This document shows, piece by piece, positions 4,587 to 59,345 of a DNA stretch of 64,000 bases. How positions within the stretch are numbered: position 1 is the first letter of the stretch; the number at the start of each line of letters is the position of its first letter. The notes beneath the pieces are model-generated. The model did not search any database. It saw only the letters and a program-made list of their open reading frames with translations, and had not been told where the DNA came from. Source of the DNA: Bacilli bacterium (lineage in GTDB: Bacteria; Bacillota_I; Bacilli_A; RF39; UBA660); assembly GCA_017527675.1 (NCBI GenBank), contig JAFXPU010000008.1, positions 8,114 through 72,113 of the forward strand, written 5' to 3'. The position numbers and the translations under genes are program-made.

Positions 4587-5618
4587 ATGTCTAAAGTTAG
4601 TGTAATCGTTCCAGTTTATAATGCTGAAAAGTATTTGGAACAATGTATTTCTAGTATAGCTAATCAAACATTAAAAGATATAGAAATTATTGCTGTTGAC
4701 GATGGTTCAATTGATAATAGTTTAATGATTCTTGATAATTTATCTTTGAAATATCGTGGTAAATTAAAAGTTTTAACTAAAGAAAATGGTGGTGCTGGTT
4801 CAGCTAGAAATGTTGGTATAGATAATGCAACAGGTGAATTTATTAAATTTGTTGATGCTGATGATTACTTAAAACTAAATATTTTAGAAAAAATGTATAG
4901 TATTGCTAAAGATTATCGAGTTTCATTAGTTAGAGGTAACTATCAAACCATTTTGGGTCCAATTAAATTGCAGGATAAATGTAGTTTTAGTGATATAAAT
5001 GAAAATATTTTAATTTATCCAACAATAAAAAAAGATCATATTATAACTGAAACACCTGGTGTAGGTAATAAGCTAATATCACGTGATTTAATAGGTGATT
5101 TAAGATTTTCTGAACAAACTAAGTGGGAAGATTTAGCAATTATGCCAGTGATAGTAGCTAGTAGTGATAAAATATTCCATTTAGATGAACCAGTCTATAA
5201 TTATCGTGCTCATATGAATACAACTTTAAGTGATTTTATTAATAAGATTCCTCAAATTTTGGATATTATTAAATGCCTAGATATATTAAAAATGCATTTA
5301 GAAGAAAGAAATCTTTATGATCAATATCAAAAACAATTTGAAAGTCTTTATATTTTACATACTTTATTTAGAGTTGAAAATGCTATGTTGTGGGTAAATT
5401 TTCCTTATAGTAAAAAGAAAGTTGTTATTAGCTCATTAATTGCTATTTTAGATTCTAAATATCCGAATTGGCAGCAAAATGAAATATTTAATCTTTATCA
5501 ACAAAAAAACAGTTTATTTAGTTTTGATATGAAAAGACTAAAACACTATATTAATGATGATGCTCGTAGTGTGGATTTAAAAACAGCGGAAAATAATATA
5601 GGTAGAGCATTAAAATAG
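4587..5618 (+). CDS. Family 2 glycosyltransferase
   Basis: VSVIVPVYNAEKYLEQCISSIANQTLKDIEIIAVDDGSIDNS and a DADD motif, typical of GT2. Confidence 0.8.
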   Translation: MSKVSVIVPVYNAEKYLEQCISSIANQTLKDIEIIAVDDGSIDNSLMILDNLSLKYRGKLKVLTKENGGAGSARNVGIDNATGEFIKFVDADDYLKLNILEKMYSIAKDYRVSLVRGNYQTILGPIKLQDKCSFSDINENILIYPTIKKDHIITETPGVGNKLISRDLIGDLRFSEQTKWEDLAIMPVIVASSDKIFHLDEPVYNYRAHMNTTLSDFINKIPQILDIIKCLDILKMHLEERNLYDQYQKQFESLYILHTLFRVENAMLWVNFPYSKKKVVISSLIAILDSKYPNWQQNEIFNLYQQKNSLFSFDMKRLKHYINDDARSVDLKTAENNIGRALK

Positions 5619-5630
5619 AAGGTGAAATTA

Positions 5631-6392
5631 ATGGGTAATATGCGTATTGGATCATTTAATACACAAGATAGTAAAGTAAATAGTCATGGTGGTATGCGAA
5701 AAGATGGTATTAATAATGCCGATATTGTTGCTTCAATGGTTGAAAAATTTGATATACTTGGAACACAAGAATTAACCATCAACTTTGTTAATGCTTTAGC
5801 ATTACGTTTAAAAAATTATAAATTTTATGGTAATTATAGATATGGTAAAGTATTAAAATATTTACCCTATAATGAAAATAATCAAATTATAACTAAACTT
5901 TCAATAATTAAGAATAAAACAATATGGTTGCCATGGGTTGCAAAGAATATCCCAGATTTAAAAACGCAAATAACAAAATTATCTTTGATGCCACGAGTTG
6001 CAACACTTGCATTTTTTGATACAAATGATGGTAAAAAAATTTGTATTATTAATACTCATTTAGATTATCAGATACCTTCAGTTCAAGTTAGACAACTTGC
6101 CTGCTTAAAAAAAATAATTAGTAAATATCATAATGATTATGAAATAATATTGACTGGCGATTTTAACCTTGAACTTGGGGATGAAAAATTTGACTCATTT
6201 ATAAATGATGTTAAAGATGATTTAAAACATGTTGATATTGATAGAAAAACATGGCATGGTAAAAATGGTGATGAAACTAGTGTTGATCATATATTTGTTC
6301 CACCTAGTTGGGAGGTTATCTCATCTGGGGTAATAGACGCAAAAGGTGCATCTGATCATGATGCTATTTATGCTGATGTTAGGATAAAATAA
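5631..6392 (+). CDS. Endonuclease/exonuclease/phosphatase (EEP) family protein
   Basis: Motifs NTHL, GDFN and C-terminal SDHDAIYADV. ATG 5631 follows AAGGTGA, whereas the track start GTG 5622 sits in the RBS. Confidence 0.65.
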   Translation: MGNMRIGSFNTQDSKVNSHGGMRKDGINNADIVASMVEKFDILGTQELTINFVNALALRLKNYKFYGNYRYGKVLKYLPYNENNQIITKLSIIKNKTIWLPWVAKNIPDLKTQITKLSLMPRVATLAFFDTNDGKKICIINTHLDYQIPSVQVRQLACLKKIISKYHNDYEIILTGDFNLELGDEKFDSFINDVKDDLKHVDIDRKTWHGKNGDETSVDHIFVPPSWEVISSGVIDAKGASDHDAIYADVRIK

Positions 6393-6415
6393 AGTTACTA
6401 AATGTAACTTTTCTT
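6392..6415 (+). terminator. Rho-independent terminator after the EEP gene
   Basis: Stem aagttac/gtaactt followed by a T-rich tail. Confidence 0.55.
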
Positions 6416-6428
6416 AAATATAACAAAA

Positions 6429-6442
6429 CGAACAAATGTTCC
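6429..6442 (+). promoter_or_regulatory. LexA operator (Cheo/SOS box)
   Basis: CGAACAAATGTTCC matches every position of the Bacillus consensus CGAACRNRYGTTYC and abuts the -35 of the promoter below. Confidence 0.6.
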
Positions 6443-6470
6443 TTGATGGGGGTATAGTTTATTATATAAT
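6443..6470 (+). promoter_or_regulatory. Sigma-A-type promoter
   Basis: -35 TTGATG (6443-6448), 16-nt spacer, -10 TATAAT (6465-6470). Confidence 0.5.
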
Positions 6471-6517
6471 TACTATGTAGAGCATGTATATAAATCTACT
6501 TAAAATAAGGAGGAAAT

Positions 6518-6547
6518 ATGGAAGAAAATAAAAGAACTTCAAAATAA
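6518..6547 (+). CDS. 9-codon mini-ORF (MEENKRTSK) with a strong RBS; possible leader peptide
   Basis: AAGGAGG lies 5 nt upstream of the ATG. The stop codon sits in the loop of the hairpin at 6530-6561. Confidence 0.25.
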   Translation: MEENKRTSK

Positions 6548-6561
6548 TTTGAAGTTCTTTT
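6530..6561 (+). terminator. Perfect 14-bp hairpin (terminator/attenuator-like)
   Basis: aaaagaacttcaaa / tttgaagttctttt with a 4-nt loop. The A- and T-tracts are part of the stem. Confidence 0.5.
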
Positions 6562-6585
6562 CATATACTTTAATAGAGGTGAAAA

Positions 6586-7281
6586 ATGAATCAAACATAT
6601 ACGGTTAAACCAGGTGATACTTTATATGGTATATCTAACCAATTTGGTGTATCAGTAACGGAACTTGCTGAATTAAATGGTATTAAAGGTAGTAACTTAG
6701 CCATAGGTCAAGTACTTAAAATACCAAATAAAAGTGGAACTAATCCTAACAATATGTTTATGTATACAGTAAAAAGTGGTGATACTCTATACGGCATAGC
6801 ACGTAAATTTGGGACAACAGTTCAAAAAATAATGGATTTAAATTATTTTAAAGATACAAATTTAAAACCAGGTCAAATAATTAGAATACCTGAAATGTAT
6901 ACTAAAGAAGAAGATATGATTATTCCTAATTATATTAATTATATAGTAAAAAAGGGAGATAGTTTATATAGTATTGCTCGTGCTAATAATGTTGATGTTG
7001 ATACATTAATAAAAGATAATGGACTTACTTCTAATAATTTAGCTATAGGTCAAATAATTAGAATAAGAGTGCCTAAAAGTAATTTAGATGATGAGATTGA
7101 GGAATGCTATGGTGTTGATTACGTGCCACCTGCTTCTAGCAGTGAAACAATTTATATAGTAAAAAAAGGAGACAACTTATATTCAATAGCAAGAAAATAT
7201 AATACTAGTGTAAGCGAAATAAAAAGAAAAAATAATTTAAAAAGTAACTTACTAAGTATTGGTCAAAAATTAATTATTTAA
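6586..7281 (+). CDS. LysM-repeat protein (four LysM domains, no signal peptide)
   Basis: Four copies of Y.VK.GD(T/S)LY.IA...(V/T)....L...N.L.....L..GQ.L.IP. The protein begins directly with a LysM domain. Confidence 0.85.
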   Translation: MNQTYTVKPGDTLYGISNQFGVSVTELAELNGIKGSNLAIGQVLKIPNKSGTNPNNMFMYTVKSGDTLYGIARKFGTTVQKIMDLNYFKDTNLKPGQIIRIPEMYTKEEDMIIPNYINYIVKKGDSLYSIARANNVDVDTLIKDNGLTSNNLAIGQIIRIRVPKSNLDDEIEECYGVDYVPPASSSETIYIVKKGDNLYSIARKYNTSVSEIKRKNNLKSNLLSIGQKLII

Positions 7282-7289
7282 GGAGGATT

Positions 7290-7703
7290 ATGGATACAAT
7301 TAATTATAATGATATAACATTTCAACAAAGTGAAATGTATAAAAAATTTGTTAAAGAAAATACCACAAGTGGTATTTTAAATATTAGAGCATATGCTGCT
7401 AATAAAGCTTTACCAGTTGAAGGTATGGAAGTTATTGTCTATAAAATAATGGATAATAAACGCGTCGTTTTTTTTGATGGAAAAACAGATAATTCTGGTT
7501 TAATTGAAAATATTAATTTACCAACACCAGAAATATCAACAAATGATTTAGTAAAACCACCTTCACAAGATTATAATATTGAGGCAATATATGATATGCA
7601 GGATTTAAAATTTAAAATAACGATGTATGCAAATGTTTCAGTTAATCAAAATATAAATGTTGTACCTATTTTAAGAACGGATGGTAATTCATATGGCAAT
7701 TAG
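7290..7703 (+). CDS. SleC-like N-terminal (pre-peptide / carboxypeptidase-regulatory-like) domain as a separate ORF
   Basis: As I recall them, it resembles the N-terminal region of clostridial SleC precursors (beta-rich; GILNIRAY...PVEGMEVIVYKI...DNSGLIENINLP). Strong RBS AAGGAGG. Overlaps the next ORF by 23 nt in another frame. Confidence 0.45.
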   Translation: MDTINYNDITFQQSEMYKKFVKENTTSGILNIRAYAANKALPVEGMEVIVYKIMDNKRVVFFDGKTDNSGLIENINLPTPEISTNDLVKPPSQDYNIEAIYDMQDLKFKITMYANVSVNQNINVVPILRTDGNSYGN

Positions 7704-12413: not shown

Positions 12414-12488
12414 TGCTCCTTGGCCAAGCGGTAAGGCATTGGACTCTGACTCCAATATGCATAGGTTCGAATCCTATAGGAGCAACCA
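12414..12488 (+). tRNA. tRNA-Gln (anticodon CUG), CCA encoded
   Basis: Cloverleaf folded by hand: acceptor TGCTCCT/AGGAGCA, D-arm GCC-AAGCGGTAA-GGC, anticodon stem TTGGA/TCCAA with loop CTCTGAC, T-arm ATAGG-TTCGAAT-CCTAT, then ACCA. Confidence 0.85.
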
Positions 12489-21235: not shown

Positions 21236-21309
21236 TGGTGCTGAATGACTGAATTGAACAGTCCTCTAAAGCTTACCATGCTTTTGTTTTACCACTAAAC
21301 TAAATCAGC
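21236..21309 (-). tRNA. tRNA-Thr (anticodon GGU), CCA encoded
   Basis: Reverse complement folds as GCTGATT-TA-GTTT-AGTGGTA-AAAC-A-AAAGC-ATGGTAA-GCTTT-AGAG-GACTG-TTCAATT-CAGTC-ATTCAGC-ACCA. There is one T:T mismatch in the acceptor stem. Confidence 0.75.
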
Positions 21310-21353
21310 AATTAAAGAAAAACTCAAACAATTTTGTTTGAGTTATTTTTAAA

Positions 21354-21430
21354 TGGTGTCCCAGAAGGGATTCGAACCCCTGACACCCGCCTTAGAAGGG
21401 CGGTGCTCTATCCAGCTGAGCTACTGAGAC
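21354..21430 (-). tRNA. tRNA-Arg (anticodon UCU), CCA encoded
   Basis: Reverse complement is GTCTCAG-TA-GCTC-AGCTGGATA-GAGC-A-CCGCC-CTTCTAA-GGCGG-GTGTC-AGGGG-TTCGAAT-CCCTT-CTGGGAC-ACCA. Confidence 0.85.
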
Positions 21431-29677: not shown

Positions 29678-30496
29678 ATGCCTGAAATAGCTGAAGTTAG
29701 AACTGTTAAAAAAGTTTTAAAAGAAAAATTAGTTGGTAGAACTATAATCAATATATCTTATAGATATGATGGTATTGTTAAGTCTAATAAAGAGGAATTT
29801 AAAAAAGTTTTAATAGGTAAAACAATAACAGATGTTGATAACTTTGGTAAATGGCTTTTTATTAAATTAGGTGAATATACAATACTATCGCATCTAAGAA
29901 TGGAAGGTAAATATTATATAAAACCCACTTGCGAAGAATATGAAAAGCATGAACATATTATCTTTAATTTAGATGATGGAACAAATTTAAGATATAAAGA
30001 TGTAAGAAAGTTTGGAGTAATGTATTTAGTTAAAACTAAAGATATTTATTCTACTGCTGAAATAGTTAAATTAGGGCTAGAACCAGATGATAATAAATTA
30101 ACTAATGAATATATCTATAATAAGATACATAGTTCTAATAAACCAATTAAAGAATTATTATTAGATCAAACTATTATAAATGGTTTTGGTAATATTTATG
30201 TAGATGAAGTATTATTTGCCTCATTTATTTTACCAACAAGATTGGGTAATACAATTAGTTTAGCTGAATGTGATCGTATTAAAAAAGAGGGTTCTAGAAT
30301 AATAAAAAAGGCAACCAGTTGTGGAGGTACTACTATTAGAAGTTACACATCTTCATTAGGAGTAGAAGGAACTTATCAAAAATATTTAAAAGTTCATACT
30401 AAACAAAATCAAAAGTGTCCAACATGTGGAGAATTAATTAAGAAAATACGTGTAGGCGGAAGAGGTACTTATTACTGCCCTAAATGCCAAAAATAA
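29678..30496 (+). CDS. mutM: Formamidopyrimidine-DNA glycosylase
   Basis: N-terminal MPEIAEV (Pro2/Glu3), an H2TH region (LLLDQTIINGFGNIYVDEVLF) and a C-terminal zinc finger CPTCG...YYCPKCQ. Confidence 0.9.
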   Translation: MPEIAEVRTVKKVLKEKLVGRTIINISYRYDGIVKSNKEEFKKVLIGKTITDVDNFGKWLFIKLGEYTILSHLRMEGKYYIKPTCEEYEKHEHIIFNLDDGTNLRYKDVRKFGVMYLVKTKDIYSTAEIVKLGLEPDDNKLTNEYIYNKIHSSNKPIKELLLDQTIINGFGNIYVDEVLFASFILPTRLGNTISLAECDRIKKEGSRIIKKATSCGGTTIRSYTSSLGVEGTYQKYLKVHTKQNQKCPTCGELIKKIRVGGRGTYYCPKCQK

Positions 30497-30797
30497 AAAC
30501 AAATGTTTGAATTAATACGAACATATTTTTATGAAACAAAAATAGTAAAAAAACGAAAAATAAAAAAATAGAAAAAAGCCAAAAATGAATTTTTCTATTT
30601 TTTTTATTTTTTGTAATAAGTACATAAAAATGATTTAGGCTTTATTTTAAAAGGAAAAACGTAGTTTTGCTGTTAAAATACAATTTTAAGAAAAAATATC
30701 AAAAAAACAAAAATGTCAAAATTTACAAAATTATATTTTGAAAAAAAATACCAAAAAGTAATATTTTTGAAAGATTGCAAAAAATGCGAAAAAATGT

Positions 30798-30826
30798 TTG
30801 ACATTGGTATGCCAGATTGCTATACT
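30798..30826 (+). promoter_or_regulatory. Sigma-A promoter of nrdD
   Basis: TTGACA (30798-30803), 17 nt, TATACT (30821-30826). Confidence 0.6.
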
Positions 30827-30853
30827 AGTAGGTAGTGAAGGGATGTATGATGT

Positions 30854-33145
30854 ATGACAAAAACAACAGAACCATTAATGGTAATTAAAAGAAATGGAAA
30901 AAAGGTCGAATATAATGGTAGTAAAATTGCTATAGCTATCAAAAAAGGTTTTGATAGTATTACTACTACTAATGAATTAGGAGAAGAAGTTAAGGTATAT
31001 TCTGAAAAAGATATCAATAAAGTATTTGTTGACGTTGAAAAAGATATACTTAAAAATTATGATGAAAAAATTAAAATTGAAGAAATTCAAGATTTAATTG
31101 AAAAACATCTTCAAAAATTAGGTTATGAAGATGTATATAAATCATTTTCTGAGTATCGTGAAAGAAGAAATCATTCACGTGAAGTATTCTTTGATGATAA
31201 GAAAATTCATAAATTCTTAAAAACAATTGAAGGATTAGGACTTAAATCTGCAGATGAAGATGATACAAAAAGAGAGAATGCTAATGTTGATGGAGATACT
31301 GCCATGGGAACAATGCTTCAATATGGTTCTACTGTATCAAAAGAATTTGCAAAGTCATACTTAATAAAAAAGAGATTTGCAGACTTACATGATGCTGGTG
31401 ATATTCATATTCATGATATGGATTTTGAAGCTATGGGTACTACAACTTGTATGCAAATTGAATTAGATAGATTATTTAAAAAAGGTTTTTCAACTGGTCA
31501 TGGTTATTTAAGACCTCCAAAAGATATCATGTCATATAGTGCTTTAGCTGCTATAGCTATTCAAGCAAATCAAAATGATCAACATGGTGGACAATCAATT
31601 CCTGCATTTGATTATTACATGGCACCTGGTGTTTTAATGACATTCAAAAAACAATTTAAGCAACATATTGCTGATATGTTAGATTACGAAGATATGTATA
31701 GTTTTGTTAATATGGATAAAGTTGCTGCTATCATTGACAAATTAGATAGTATTGATGTTGACTTAACAATTTTTGAACCATTCTATAAAGAATCAGAATT
31801 ATTAGAAAGCAGATTTGCTAAATGTTATGATAAAGCTGTAGCTAAAACAAATCGTACAACATATCAAGCTATGGAAGCATTTGTTCATAATTTAAATACA
31901 ATGCATTCACGTGCTGGTGCTCAAGTACCATTCTCATCAATTAACTTTGGTACTGATACTACACCAGAAGGAAGAATGGTTATTGAAAACTTCTTGCTTG
32001 CAACAGAAGCTGGTTTGGGAAAAGGTGAAACACCAATTTTCCCAGTATCAATTTTTAAAGTAAAAGAAGGAGTTAACTATAATCAAGAAGATCCAAACTA
32101 TGATTTATTTAAATTAGCATGTAAGGTATCTGCTGAAAGATTATTCCCTAACTTCTCATTTTTGGATGCACCATTTAATATCTCATATTATAAAAAAGGA
32201 GATCCAAAGTCAGAAGTTGGTTATATGGGATGCCGTACTCGTGTTATGGCTGATGTTACTGATCCTGATAATGAAACAACAGGTGGACGTGGAAACTTAT
32301 CATTTACATCAATTAACTTACCTCGTATAGCTATTAAACATGGTATTTGTTTAGGTGAACGTGATAAAGCTGATATGAAAGGTTTCTATGCTGAACTTGC
32401 TGAAAGAATGGATGATGTAAGAGATCAATTACTTGAGAGATTTGAGATTCAATGTTCTAAACATAGTTATAATTTCCCATTCTTAATTCAACAAGGTGTA
32501 TGGACTAATGGTGAAAAATTAGAACCAGGTGATAGAATGAGAAAGATTCTAAAACATGGTACATTAACAACTGGATTTATTGGACTTGCTGAAACTCTTG
32601 TTGCTTTAATTGGTAAACATCATGGTGAATCAGCAGAAGCTCAAAAATTGGGCTTAGAAATTGTTAAATTTATGCGTGAAAGATGTAATCAATATTGTAA
32701 GGATTACAACTTAAACTTCACATTAATAGCAACTCCTGCTGAAGGTTTATCTGGAAGATTTGTTAATATTGATAAATCAATTTATGGAAATATTAAAGGA
32801 GTTACAGATAAAAAATTCTATACTAACTCATTCCATATTCCAGTAAACTTTAATATATCTATTAAAGATAAGATAACTTTAGAAGCACCATATCATAATT
32901 TAACAAATGGTGGTCATATTTCATATATTGAACTTGATGGCGAAGCTGTTAAGAACTTAGATGCATTTGAAAATATCATTCGCTTGATGAAAGAAGCAGG
33001 CATTGGTTATGGGGCAATAAACCATCCAGTAGACCGTGATCCAGTATGTGGATACGTTGGTGTTATTGGCGATACTTGTCCAGGTTGTGGTAGACATGAA
33101 TTTGAAGCTGTACCACTAGAAGAAATTAGAAACGTAAGTTGTTAG
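30854..33145 (+). CDS. nrdD: Anaerobic (class III) ribonucleoside-triphosphate reductase catalytic chain, ending before the glycyl-radical motif
   Basis: ATP-cone-like N-terminus (VIKRNGKKVEYNGSKIAIAIKKGF), SRAGAQVPFSSINFG, the thiyl-Cys loop YMGCRTRV, and Zn-ribbon cysteines CGYVGVIGDTCPGCG. TAG at 33143-33145 with no RxxGY in this ORF. Confidence 0.9.
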   Translation: MTKTTEPLMVIKRNGKKVEYNGSKIAIAIKKGFDSITTTNELGEEVKVYSEKDINKVFVDVEKDILKNYDEKIKIEEIQDLIEKHLQKLGYEDVYKSFSEYRERRNHSREVFFDDKKIHKFLKTIEGLGLKSADEDDTKRENANVDGDTAMGTMLQYGSTVSKEFAKSYLIKKRFADLHDAGDIHIHDMDFEAMGTTTCMQIELDRLFKKGFSTGHGYLRPPKDIMSYSALAAIAIQANQNDQHGGQSIPAFDYYMAPGVLMTFKKQFKQHIADMLDYEDMYSFVNMDKVAAIIDKLDSIDVDLTIFEPFYKESELLESRFAKCYDKAVAKTNRTTYQAMEAFVHNLNTMHSRAGAQVPFSSINFGTDTTPEGRMVIENFLLATEAGLGKGETPIFPVSIFKVKEGVNYNQEDPNYDLFKLACKVSAERLFPNFSFLDAPFNISYYKKGDPKSEVGYMGCRTRVMADVTDPDNETTGGRGNLSFTSINLPRIAIKHGICLGERDKADMKGFYAELAERMDDVRDQLLERFEIQCSKHSYNFPFLIQQGVWTNGEKLEPGDRMRKILKHGTLTTGFIGLAETLVALIGKHHGESAEAQKLGLEIVKFMRERCNQYCKDYNLNFTLIATPAEGLSGRFVNIDKSIYGNIKGVTDKKFYTNSFHIPVNFNISIKDKITLEAPYHNLTNGGHISYIELDGEAVKNLDAFENIIRLMKEAGIGYGAINHPVDRDPVCGYVGVIGDTCPGCGRHEFEAVPLEEIRNVSC

Positions 33146-33155
33146 GAGGTAAATT

Positions 33156-33317
33156 ATGGAAAAATTAGTTGGTGAAGGTGTTGGATTTGAAAGAATTAGA
33201 AGGGTAACAGGATACCTTTCAGGAGATGTTAAAAGATTCAACGATGCAAAAAGAGCTGAAGAAAAAGCTCGTGTAAAACACACTGGTATCAAAGAATTAT
33301 CTAAAAAGGGTTGTTAA
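33156..33317 (+). CDS. Stand-alone 53-aa NrdD glycyl-radical segment (not in the ORF track)
   Basis: AGGAGG (33144-33149) lies 6 nt before ATG 33156. Product MEKLVGEGVGFERIRRVTGYLSGDVKRFNDAKRAEEKARVKHTGIKELSKKGC carries the RVTGYL...FN.AK...R.KH signature of NrdD C-termini. It is in a different frame from nrdD. Confidence 0.75.
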   Translation: MEKLVGEGVGFERIRRVTGYLSGDVKRFNDAKRAEEKARVKHTGIKELSKKGC

Positions 33318-33319
33318 TT

Positions 33320-33880
33320 ATGGAAATAAGACTAGCTGCCGATTTACAAATAGATAGTATTGTTGATGGCCTAGGTATTAGAACAGTTATTTGGACACAA
33401 GGATGCAAACATAAATGTCCTGGTTGTCATAATCCAGAAACTTGGCCATTTACTGGTGGTGCTTTGGTTGATGTTAAATACATTACAAAAGAAATGGATA
33501 AATTAGAAGGTCAAACTGGAGTAACTTTCTCTGGTGGAGATCCTTTTTATCAGCCAAAAGAATGTGCTTATTTAGCTAAACATGCTCATAAATTAGGCTT
33601 AAATGTTTGGTGTTATACTGGCTTTACTTATGAGCAATTAATGTCCTTAAATAAGAAGAATCCTGATATTATGTCTTTTATGAAAGAAATAGATGTTTTA
33701 GTTGATGGACCATTTATGCAAGATAAAAAGAGTTTAGATATTAAATTTAGAGGCTCATCTAATCAAAGAGTTATTGATGTTAAAAAAAGTCTTGCTGAAG
33801 ATAAGGTAATAGAATTAGATCTTGATTCTAAACCATCTCATCATCATTTTGGAAGACATGATCATAAATTATATATTTAA
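33320..33880 (+). CDS. nrdG: Anaerobic ribonucleotide reductase activating enzyme (radical SAM)
   Basis: CKHKCPGCHN cluster motif, FSGGDPF, and its position directly after nrdD. Confidence 0.9.
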   Translation: MEIRLAADLQIDSIVDGLGIRTVIWTQGCKHKCPGCHNPETWPFTGGALVDVKYITKEMDKLEGQTGVTFSGGDPFYQPKECAYLAKHAHKLGLNVWCYTGFTYEQLMSLNKKNPDIMSFMKEIDVLVDGPFMQDKKSLDIKFRGSSNQRVIDVKKSLAEDKVIELDLDSKPSHHHFGRHDHKLYI

Positions 33881-42102: not shown

Positions 42103-42310
42103 ATATTTTTGAAAAAACGTTGAAAAAGAGTAGTAATAAATAAAACATTTATTTAGAGAAAAAGTGGTTGGTGAAAACTTTTAAATGTTATTTATGAACT
42201 TGCTTTGGAGTTTATGCGTATATCTGCGTTAAAGATTAAAGATAATCTAAGTATTATGAAAAAGGGTGGTACCACGATCAAGTCGTCCCTTTAACATAAT
42301 ACTTTTTTTT
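42103..42310 (+). ncRNA. T-box leader, leucine specifier (CUU)
   Basis: Promoter TTGAAT-17-TATAAT (42068-42096) overlaps the GH31 stop. Contains AGAGA, GGTGAAA, the specifier context TTTATGAA-CTT (42199-42201), the T-box AAAGGGTGGTACCACG, and a long terminator helix (aagtattatg...cataatactt) plus a T-run of 8. Confidence 0.8.
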
Positions 42311-59229: not shown

Positions 59230-59345
59230 ACGTTTTTATGCTAAAATTTATTACTGTGTAGAGCCTCACTCTACAACCGCACAGATAAGGTTTTAAACTT
59301 AGGTGCCTTAAATGGCGAGTCTTAGATTATAAAGGAGGTATATAA
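59219..59345 (+). promoter_or_regulatory. rplU promoter (TTGACA-17-TAAAAT) plus structured leader, probably an L21-leader-type element
   Basis: -35 at 59219-59224 and -10 at 59242-59247. The leader contains nested stems CTGTG-TAGAG...CTCTA...CACAG. A ribosomal leader upstream of rplU-prp-rpmA is known in Bacillota. Confidence 0.45.

Follow-up and report, generated by a model that had tools for sequence, protein, structure and literature searches.

Surveys of the ribonucleotide reductase (RNR) family assign the radical domain to the C-terminal end of the class III alpha chain (PMC9531940, PMC9669993), and according to a review of June 2026 the formate lyases are the sole glycyl radical enzymes with identified spare-part proteins (PMC13450708); a paper of 2021 speculates that other members of the family might have spare-part proteins as well (PMC8683613). 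In a 64-kb stretch of the genome of a Bacilli bacterium (contig JAFXPU010000008.1; hereafter the window, in whose positions all coordinates of this locus are given, with a G+C content of about 26%), an original prediction made from the letters alone had proposed a class III RNR in two pieces, with the glycyl-radical motif encoded by a separate open reading frame (ORF) of 53 amino acids (aa) between nrdD and nrdG. We followed up this prediction computationally and find that the split class III RNR is real, conserved and widespread, with hundreds of gut bacteria among its carriers, and that it is without description in the literature searched. In that full-text literature, with much of the subscription-journal literature outside the reach of the search, neither a split NrdD nor an NrdD-type autonomous radical peptide is described, and the sole match for a split gene together with a glycyl radical dealt with the inteins of a Campylobacter phage. 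We infer that the peptide functions as the radical-bearing subunit and assign a probability of roughly 0.85 to its being the normal radical-bearing subunit of a two-chain class III RNR.

The closest described systems are the one-chain class III RNRs (NrdD with NrdG; Prevotella copri, PDB entry 8P23, phage T4 and Escherichia coli), and the locus has in common with them the ATP-cone, the barrel, the thiyl-cysteine loop, a Zn-ribbon segment, the RxTGY motif and the adjacent activase. The two chains jointly align with residues 9-740 of the 743 residues of the P. copri enzyme. The locus differs from the one-chain systems in that the glycyl segment is a separate gene product, in about 19 extra residues around the break (13 as a tail of the large chain, 6 as a leader of the peptide) and in an Asp in place of the first Zn-ribbon Cys. 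The autonomous cofactors of pyruvate formate-lyase (PFL), GrcA/YfiD in E. coli and its phage T4 homologue Y06I, are likewise small stand-alone glycyl-radical proteins for which activation by the activase of the parent enzyme is expected, and both these proteins and the NrdD-type peptide have phage-encoded versions; the premise of the original prediction that GrcA/YfiD is the only well-known protein of this kind agrees with the 2026 review (PMC13450708). In contrast to GrcA/YfiD, the peptide is homologous to NrdD (Pfam NRDD) and not to the C-terminus of PFL, and its adjacent partner enzyme has no glycyl domain of its own, which argues for an obligate subunit and not a repair part.

Splits are also described for RNRs of the two other classes. 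NrdJa/NrdJb of Pseudomonas aeruginosa, a split class II RNR (Crona et al. 2015, as cited in PMC9669993), likewise depends on the association of the products of two consecutive genes; it is, however, B12-dependent, works without a glycyl radical and is broken at another place, its NrdJb is a C-terminal piece that is large and folded, and no phage-borne orphan piece is reported in the work as cited there. The NrdA of Aeromonas phage Aeh1, a functional large subunit made from two separately translated pieces (Friedrich et al. 2007, as cited in PMC3322345), is split by an inserted homing-endonuclease gene, whereas the break in the window is a gap of 10 nucleotides (nt) with no mobile element and with a duplication scar at the junction. 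At this break, where the chain ends add 13 and 6 residues, no homing-endonuclease gene, intron or intein was found.

Two chains that tile one NrdD

The nrdD gene (30854..33145; this and all further features of the locus lie on the plus strand) encodes a large chain of 763 aa, in which sequence, Pfam, NCBIfam and PDB 8P23 identify an ATP-cone, a catalytic barrel and a putative Zn ribbon, and which is without a glycyl-radical segment. It scores 624.8 bits against Pfam NRDD (PF13597; cutoff 26.2), 571.1 bits against TIGR02487 (cutoff 326) and 999 bits against NCBIfam NF005497 (cutoff 764), and it matches residues 9-709 of P. copri NrdD with an E value of 1.8e-169. The ATP-cone domain covers residues 9-106 (30878..31171; PF03477, 61 bits, E 1.6e-16), and the class II RNR models of NCBIfam reach 23-32 bits against cutoffs of 1125-2400, in the ATP-cone region only. 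The product contains GYMGCRTRV and the ribbon CGYVGVIGDTCPGCG and has the C-terminus EEIRNVSC (...EFEAVPLEEIRNVSC). Among 64 homologues Y457, M458, G459, C460, R461, T462 and R463 of the YMGCRTR loop (32222..32242) are invariant, and Cys460 is, from what is established for NrdD, the presumed thiyl-radical cysteine. The Zn-ribbon segment D729-x2-C732 ... C742-x2-C745-G746 (33038..33091), aligned with RCLDC...CPKC of P. copri, has Asp as its first canonical position (D-x2-C ... C-x2-C; RDPVC, 33038-33049), a feature conserved among the homologues and found alike in the fused relatives described below.

Inspection of the sequence and of the profiles revealed no RxxGY motif on the 763-aa chain; the motif does not lie on the same polypeptide as NrdD but on the separate 53-aa ORF (33156..33317), which is in the +1 frame relative to nrdD. 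The TAG stop of nrdD (33143-33145) is overlapped by the Shine-Dalgarno sequence of the small ORF, AGGAGG (33144-33149; both elements together 33143..33149), and the ATG at 33156 follows 6 nt after AGGAGG and 10 nt after the nrdD stop. The ORF ends with TAA at 33315-33317, and its product is MEKLVGEGVGFERIRRVTGYLSGDVKRFNDAKRAEEKARVKHTGIKELSKKGC. From sequence, profiles, relatives and selection it is predicted to be an autonomous glycyl-radical subunit, with the GGA codon of Gly19 in RRVTGY (33210..33212), aligned with QRITGY of P. copri, as the predicted radical site. The nrdG gene (33320..33880), whose ATG at 33320 stands 2 nt past the TAA of the peptide gene, encodes a 186-aa activase of the radical-SAM type, which exceeds the TIGR02491 cutoff of 126.1 with 154.3 bits and contains Fer4_12 and Radical_SAM domains. 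Re-reading of the sequence thus reproduced all positions and motifs of the original prediction, namely the 763-aa nrdD, the AGGAGG, the 53-codon ORF and the nrdG start 2 nt further on.

The homology of the small product is confined to NrdD: its only Pfam match is NRDD (PF13597), its NCBIfam matches are NrdD models only, and the Pfam scan gave no match to PF01228, the C-terminal Gly_radical domain of PFL. No model dedicated to the peptide was found among NCBIfam, Pfam and PHROG. Together the two chains tile the family models, the large chain covering model positions 1-533 and the peptide 533-562 of the 562 positions of Pfam NRDD, 3-715 and 712-744 of the 746 positions of NF005497, and residues 9-709 and 707-740 of the 743 residues of 8P23. 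This gapless tiling locates the break past the Zn ribbon and before the RxTGY loop, just where it had been predicted.

Conservation of the split across genomes

On a single sequence, a small ORF in another frame 10 nt past a stop resembles the result of an indel, and an assembly or sequencing error, or a strain-specific pseudogene left by a recent frameshift in a one-chain nrdD, would account for it. An in-frame TAA (33150-33152), however, stands just 5' of the ATG of the small ORF, so that no single-base indel can rejoin the small ORF with nrdD. Moreover, the exact 53-aa peptide is indexed in 32 blocks of the assembly collection, and all 24 contigs that we read, which come from different samples, carry the 763-aa nrdD, the 53-aa ORF and nrdG with mreC, mreD and fpg upstream and fmt and mur ligases downstream, which makes the layout identical on at least 24 independent contigs. 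A 55-aa peptide, 90% identical, occurs in another neighbourhood (a two-component system upstream) with the identical three-gene layout. The closest 120 NrdD homologues (76-100% identity) have 763-786 aa, end soon after the ribbon, keep their motifs intact and have no glycyl segment. The ratio of non-synonymous to synonymous substitution rates (dN/dS) of the peptide against its relatives is 0.06-0.33 over a core of 45 codons, and between two conspecific contigs this core shows 7 synonymous but no non-synonymous differences. Both nrdD and the small ORF, which flank the junction, have a dN/dS well below 1, contrary to what is expected of an error or a pseudogene.

To describe the breadth of the peptide family, we used a collection of 5.8 billion proteins, a library of representatives at 50% identity and one genome per GTDB species. 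The single peptide gave 1859 matches in the 5.8-billion-protein collection, the best 120 of which all have 53-83 aa, and 1794 clusters at E values up to 0.001 among the 50%-identity representatives, the best 150 of which all have 45-193 aa. Nearly all of these best 150 share the core vGEGVgFERIRRiTGYLvGtxDRFNnaKRAEExDRVKH, which is preceded by Met and a short leader and followed by a short tail, both of them variable. A profile search extended the family to at least 8000 clusters (top 120 all of 47-81 aa), and the top profile matches bear the source names "hypothetical protein" or, generically, "anaerobic ribonucleoside-triphosphate reductase". The family has a length of 45-90 aa, and with 45-70 aa the peptide is shorter than YfiD (127 aa); 14 core positions including G19 are invariant among 47 diverse peptides. 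A cultured example is a 61-aa protein of Agathobaculum sp. Marseille-P7918. As a side observation, one 175-aa entry of the representative library (P0284) has the peptide core at its start, runs without interruption into the C-terminal region of an NrdD large chain and stops shortly past the Zn ribbon of that chain; a chimeric gene call, a tandem arrangement and an assembly artefact are all conceivable.

At least 588 GTDB species genomes, from several phyla, encode a relative of the peptide, and the best 80 of them (L011-L090) were taken as the bacterial loci. They comprise Bacilli, Tenericutes and Mycoplasmatota metagenome-assembled genomes (MAGs), Desulfovibrio and Mailhella, Succinatimonas and Anaerobiospirillum, Fibrobacter, and among the Clostridia Oscillospiraceae, Lachnospiraceae, Ruminococcaceae, Acutalibacteraceae and Peptococcaceae. 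In 78 of the 80 loci a short open frame encodes the peptide, and only L088 and L066 have it fused. An nrdD is adjacent in 72 of the 80, and these 72 loci, the two fused ones included in the counts of frames and stops, were used to describe the junction. The split is present in 70 of the 72. Relative to nrdD the peptide is in frame +1 in 27 loci, +2 in 24 and 0 in 21; nrdD ends with TAA in 42, TAG in 21 and TGA in 9; and the gap between nrdD and the peptide gene ranges from -1 to 298 nt. The peptide gene starts with ATG, or with GTG in two loci. Of the 70 split loci, 69 have a Shine-Dalgarno match before this start, and in 41 of these it comprises 5 or 6 bases at a distance of 3-7 nt. In many Bacilli-type loci nrdG starts -11 to +4 nt from the stop of the peptide gene. 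In one viral contig (L130) the usual order is reversed, and the peptide gene (4959-5156 of that contig) lies upstream of nrdD (5140-7374) and overlaps its start.

As frames, stops and gaps vary, a frameshift error shared by the loci is excluded, and so is one systematic artefact in all assemblies; together with the constraint on both genes and the repeated layout in close relatives, this leaves error or pseudogene formation with next to no probability. No continuous nrdD occurs among the closest relatives (24 contigs, 120 homologues, 70 of 72 loci), which supports the view of the original prediction that the NrdD is in two pieces rather than decaying, and as to the arrangement of stop, ribosome-binding site and ATG, which it had proposed to check in orthologous loci, those 70 of the 72 species-level loci keep the split with varied junctions.

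The short spacing and the +1 frame seen in the window would also suit a +1 frameshift or a translational bypass, that is, recoding that yields one fused NrdD, as protein ligation would. The varied layouts exclude any single recoding mechanism, though: the frames 0, +1 and +2 are about equally frequent across species, the gap reaches 298 nt, and no one signal could serve all layouts. In addition, a Shine-Dalgarno sequence and an ATG of its own are nearly universal for the peptide gene, the reversed order in L130, with the peptide gene upstream, identifies nrdD and the peptide gene as independent cistrons, and many phages have the peptide gene without any nrdD nearby. Ligation is opposed by the lack of an intein-like sequence at chain ends that add only about 13 and 6 residues. 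A fused product formed in either way is therefore barely credible, and purifying selection together with the near-universal ATG and Shine-Dalgarno sequence argues for translation of the small ORF.

A duplication scar at the junction

In the fused relatives the junction reads ...CPQCGRHEFDEGIGFERIRRITGYL... (L088) and ...CPNCGRSEEEGPHFQRIRRITGYL... (L066), and in the window it reads ...CPGCGRHEF-EAVPLEEIRNVSC, stop, Shine-Dalgarno, start, MEKLVG-EGVGFERIRRVTGYL.... The C-terminal tail of the large chain in the window, EAVPLEEIRNVSC (33104..33142), is a degenerate copy of the head of the peptide, EGVGFERIRRVTG, according to a register test in which the 14-residue peptide head ending at the radical Gly is slid without gaps along the tail of the large chain and the similarity is expressed as a z score against shuffled tails. 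The best register is identical in all 68 split loci and begins at the fourth residue past CPxCG, with a mean z of 3.5 and p below 0.05 in 61 of the 68. For the window z is 4.25, a score reached by 0 of 300 shuffles, and the terminal Cys763 (33140-33142) aligns with the radical Gly19; in another example, the Succinatimonas locus L071, the tail RKD-GEGVSIERLRKLG faces the head GEGVKFERIRRVTG.

Since a tail copy in the same register is found in 68 of 68 loci, the split bears the scar of a partial tandem duplication of the start of the radical domain, and the resemblance of the large-chain tail to the peptide head (GEGVGFERIRRxTG) points to an origin of the two genes by such a duplication. The ancestor would have been fused, with a sequence of the kind ...CGRHEFDEGIGFERIRRITGY, and the beginning of its radical domain would have undergone a partial tandem duplication; the first copy would have become the stop-terminated tail of the large chain, and the second would have gained a ribosome-binding site and a start codon. 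The tail pattern GE.[VI]..E[KR][LIV]..[LI] is kept across phyla in which the large chains are only 45-55% identical. This conservation suggests that the pseudo-copy is still used, perhaps as a docking partner or placeholder for the peptide. At least one Cys lies past tail residue 14 in 44 of 71 large-chain tails, mostly as a CxC or CC pair. A metal clasp shared by Cys-containing ends of both chains was considered and rejected, as no tail-Cys association was found (12, 32, 6 and 21 loci; Fisher p 0.78).

The proposed two-chain enzyme and orphan copies in phages

In the two-chain enzyme proposed here, the large nrdD, the small ORF and nrdG would be transcribed as one operon. About 27 nt 5' of nrdD lies a putative promoter (30798..30826) consisting of TTGACA, 17 nt and a TG-extended TATACT, which is a consensus match only, at 11 of 12 positions, and the best in the region; a sequence scan found no plus-strand terminator-like site between nrdD, the small ORF and nrdG, and inspection of 30490-30853, upstream of nrdD, found no convincing NrdR box. 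The ATP-cone, the Zn ribbon and the barrel, in which Cys460 would be the thiyl cysteine, would come from the 763-aa chain, and the 53-aa protein, made from its own AGGAGG and ATG, would be the glycyl-radical domain. With the peptide free or loosely bound, NrdG would abstract a hydrogen at Gly19, and the activated peptide would dock non-covalently in the barrel, at the site of the covalent domain in one-chain enzymes, and generate the thiyl radical at Cys460. Cleavage by oxygen at the radical glycine would cost only the 6-kDa peptide, which a fresh peptide could replace. The radical-bearing part would in this way be a small, separately made and exchangeable unit, and phages might exploit this by carrying the small gene alone. 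Whether exchangeability is the selected advantage of the peptide we regard as an even bet; the cheap and replaceable radical subunit envisaged in the original prediction gains some indirect support from the phages with the small gene only.

Several points weigh against the two-chain enzyme. The sequences show how the genes are arranged and conserved, that they are under purifying selection and homologous to one-chain NrdD, the duplication scar and where phages carry the peptide; translation of the small ORF, formation of the radical on the peptide, docking and the advantage of exchange are inferred, the steps of the reaction from the established mechanism of class III RNRs and the advantage in exchange or repair by analogy with GrcA. 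AlphaFold2 run on the concatenated pair with no alignment gave a meaningless model (mean predicted local distance difference test, pLDDT, 33.6), and with a shallow alignment of 63 large-chain homologues the mean pLDDT was 65.6 and fell below 50 at residues 725-816, so that docking of the peptide is not supported structurally by a model built on a shallow alignment of large-chain homologues only. Asp stands in place of the first Zn-ribbon Cys where P. copri has RCLDC, and the fused relatives have the same Asp. Finally, 64 kb of the genome were covered, and another RNR or a fused nrdD may lie elsewhere; the second, intact nrdD that according to the original prediction would speak for a decaying locus is absent from the window, as is a second copy of the peptide, and the answer holds for these 64 kb.

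A strict spare part of the GrcA type, which would only rescue an oxygen-cleaved full-length NrdD encoded elsewhere, is suggested by the analogy with YfiD/GrcA and T4 Y06I (PMC8683613) and by orphan copies of the peptide in phages and some chromosomes. The adjacent large chain, however, is without a glycine segment of its own at which oxygen could cleave it; in 70 genomes this conserved chain is found together with the peptide and nrdG, and no second nrdD accompanies it in the window, which makes this account unlikely; it may apply to the orphan phage copies. Even less probable is a role as a regulator or decoy, for instance as a substrate mimic that titrates NrdG. The peptide is small and homologous to the substrate segment of NrdG, so NrdG would recognise it, but this would deprive the large chain of its radical source and make it useless, which is at odds with the strong constraint on it. 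Besides, the peptide keeps the whole post-glycine segment ...RFNxxKRAEExDRVKH, which belongs to the buried domain in one-chain NrdD and extends beyond the loop recognised by the activase. We therefore retain the peptide as the normal radical-bearing subunit.

Relatives of the peptide are encoded on at least 572 viral contigs of IMG/VR, of which the best 80 (L091-L170) were analysed. A short ORF is present in 79 of these 80, with called lengths mostly of 45-72 aa. In 64 there is no nrdD or nrdG within 5 kb, and in 15 there is an adjacent phage nrdD, itself without a radical segment. Eight of the best 80 bacterial loci are also without an adjacent nrdD, and most of these look like prophages; orphan copies in bacterial genomes include L021, L025, L027, L038, L050 and L063. 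Small terminase, Holliday-junction resolvases or RusA and a DNA invertase are neighbours of the orphan gene in the viral contig L094 and in L021, L050 and L063, and L050 is a prophage-like region of the cultured Desulfovibrio falkowii 13CB8C. Among GenBank phages there are few matches, and large Clostridioides difficile phages have a fused nrdD. By the parallel with T4 Y06I, the partner of a phage NrdD-type peptide would be the class III RNR of the host, and the orphan phage gene is a candidate for a minimal auxiliary metabolic gene.

By slightly better than even odds, these distributions may reflect a wider principle, in which NrdD-type glycyl-radical peptides form a large unrecognised family of diffusible radical cofactors, the class III RNR of many anaerobes consists of an apo-enzyme and an exchangeable subunit of 50-60 aa, and temperate as well as lytic phages carry the gene of about 150 nt alone to recharge or boost the RNR of the host. 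If so, ribonucleotide reductases would have in the peptide their first spare-part or cofactor-like protein, and the enzyme would be the first glycyl radical enzyme with its radical normally on a separate polypeptide. Should the two-chain form be natural and widespread, the exit and re-entry of the radical domain from the barrel during activation would become testable with separable parts, and split class III enzymes would join the known split RNRs of class I and class II. The two-chain form would also explain in a simple way how strict anaerobes keep the price of oxygen damage to RNR low, and it would reveal among gut phages a candidate auxiliary metabolic gene of very small size. It would further expose a gap in annotation, as the peptides are called hypothetical or missed, and NrdD chains of about 760 aa look complete to profiles yet could not work alone. 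The orphan peptides of phages and the duplication scar go beyond the original prediction and are the most promising leads.

Three minor observations may be added. In the cultured Eggerthella phage EL753P1 (OP172808.1, 3741-7172; locus L171) a 952-aa nrdD is followed by hypothetical ORFs of 102 and 42 aa; the match to the glycyl segment (7042-7169) is in two pieces and reaches past the annotated 42-aa ORF, and the record probably contains a mis-called or frameshifted version of the small gene. A Succinatimonas MAG (L065, 1534-1707) has an orphan peptide gene in an apparently non-phage chromosomal context, flanked, as judged by eye, by an iron-containing alcohol dehydrogenase-like ORF and a ThiF/MoeB-like ORF, and another Succinatimonas genome (L071) has the normal split operon. 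The window itself has the features of an ordinary low-GC Bacilli chromosome, among them a T-box leader, an L21 leader and tRNA-Gln, tRNA-Thr and tRNA-Arg (42111-42293, 59265-59332, 12414-12488 and 21236-21430).

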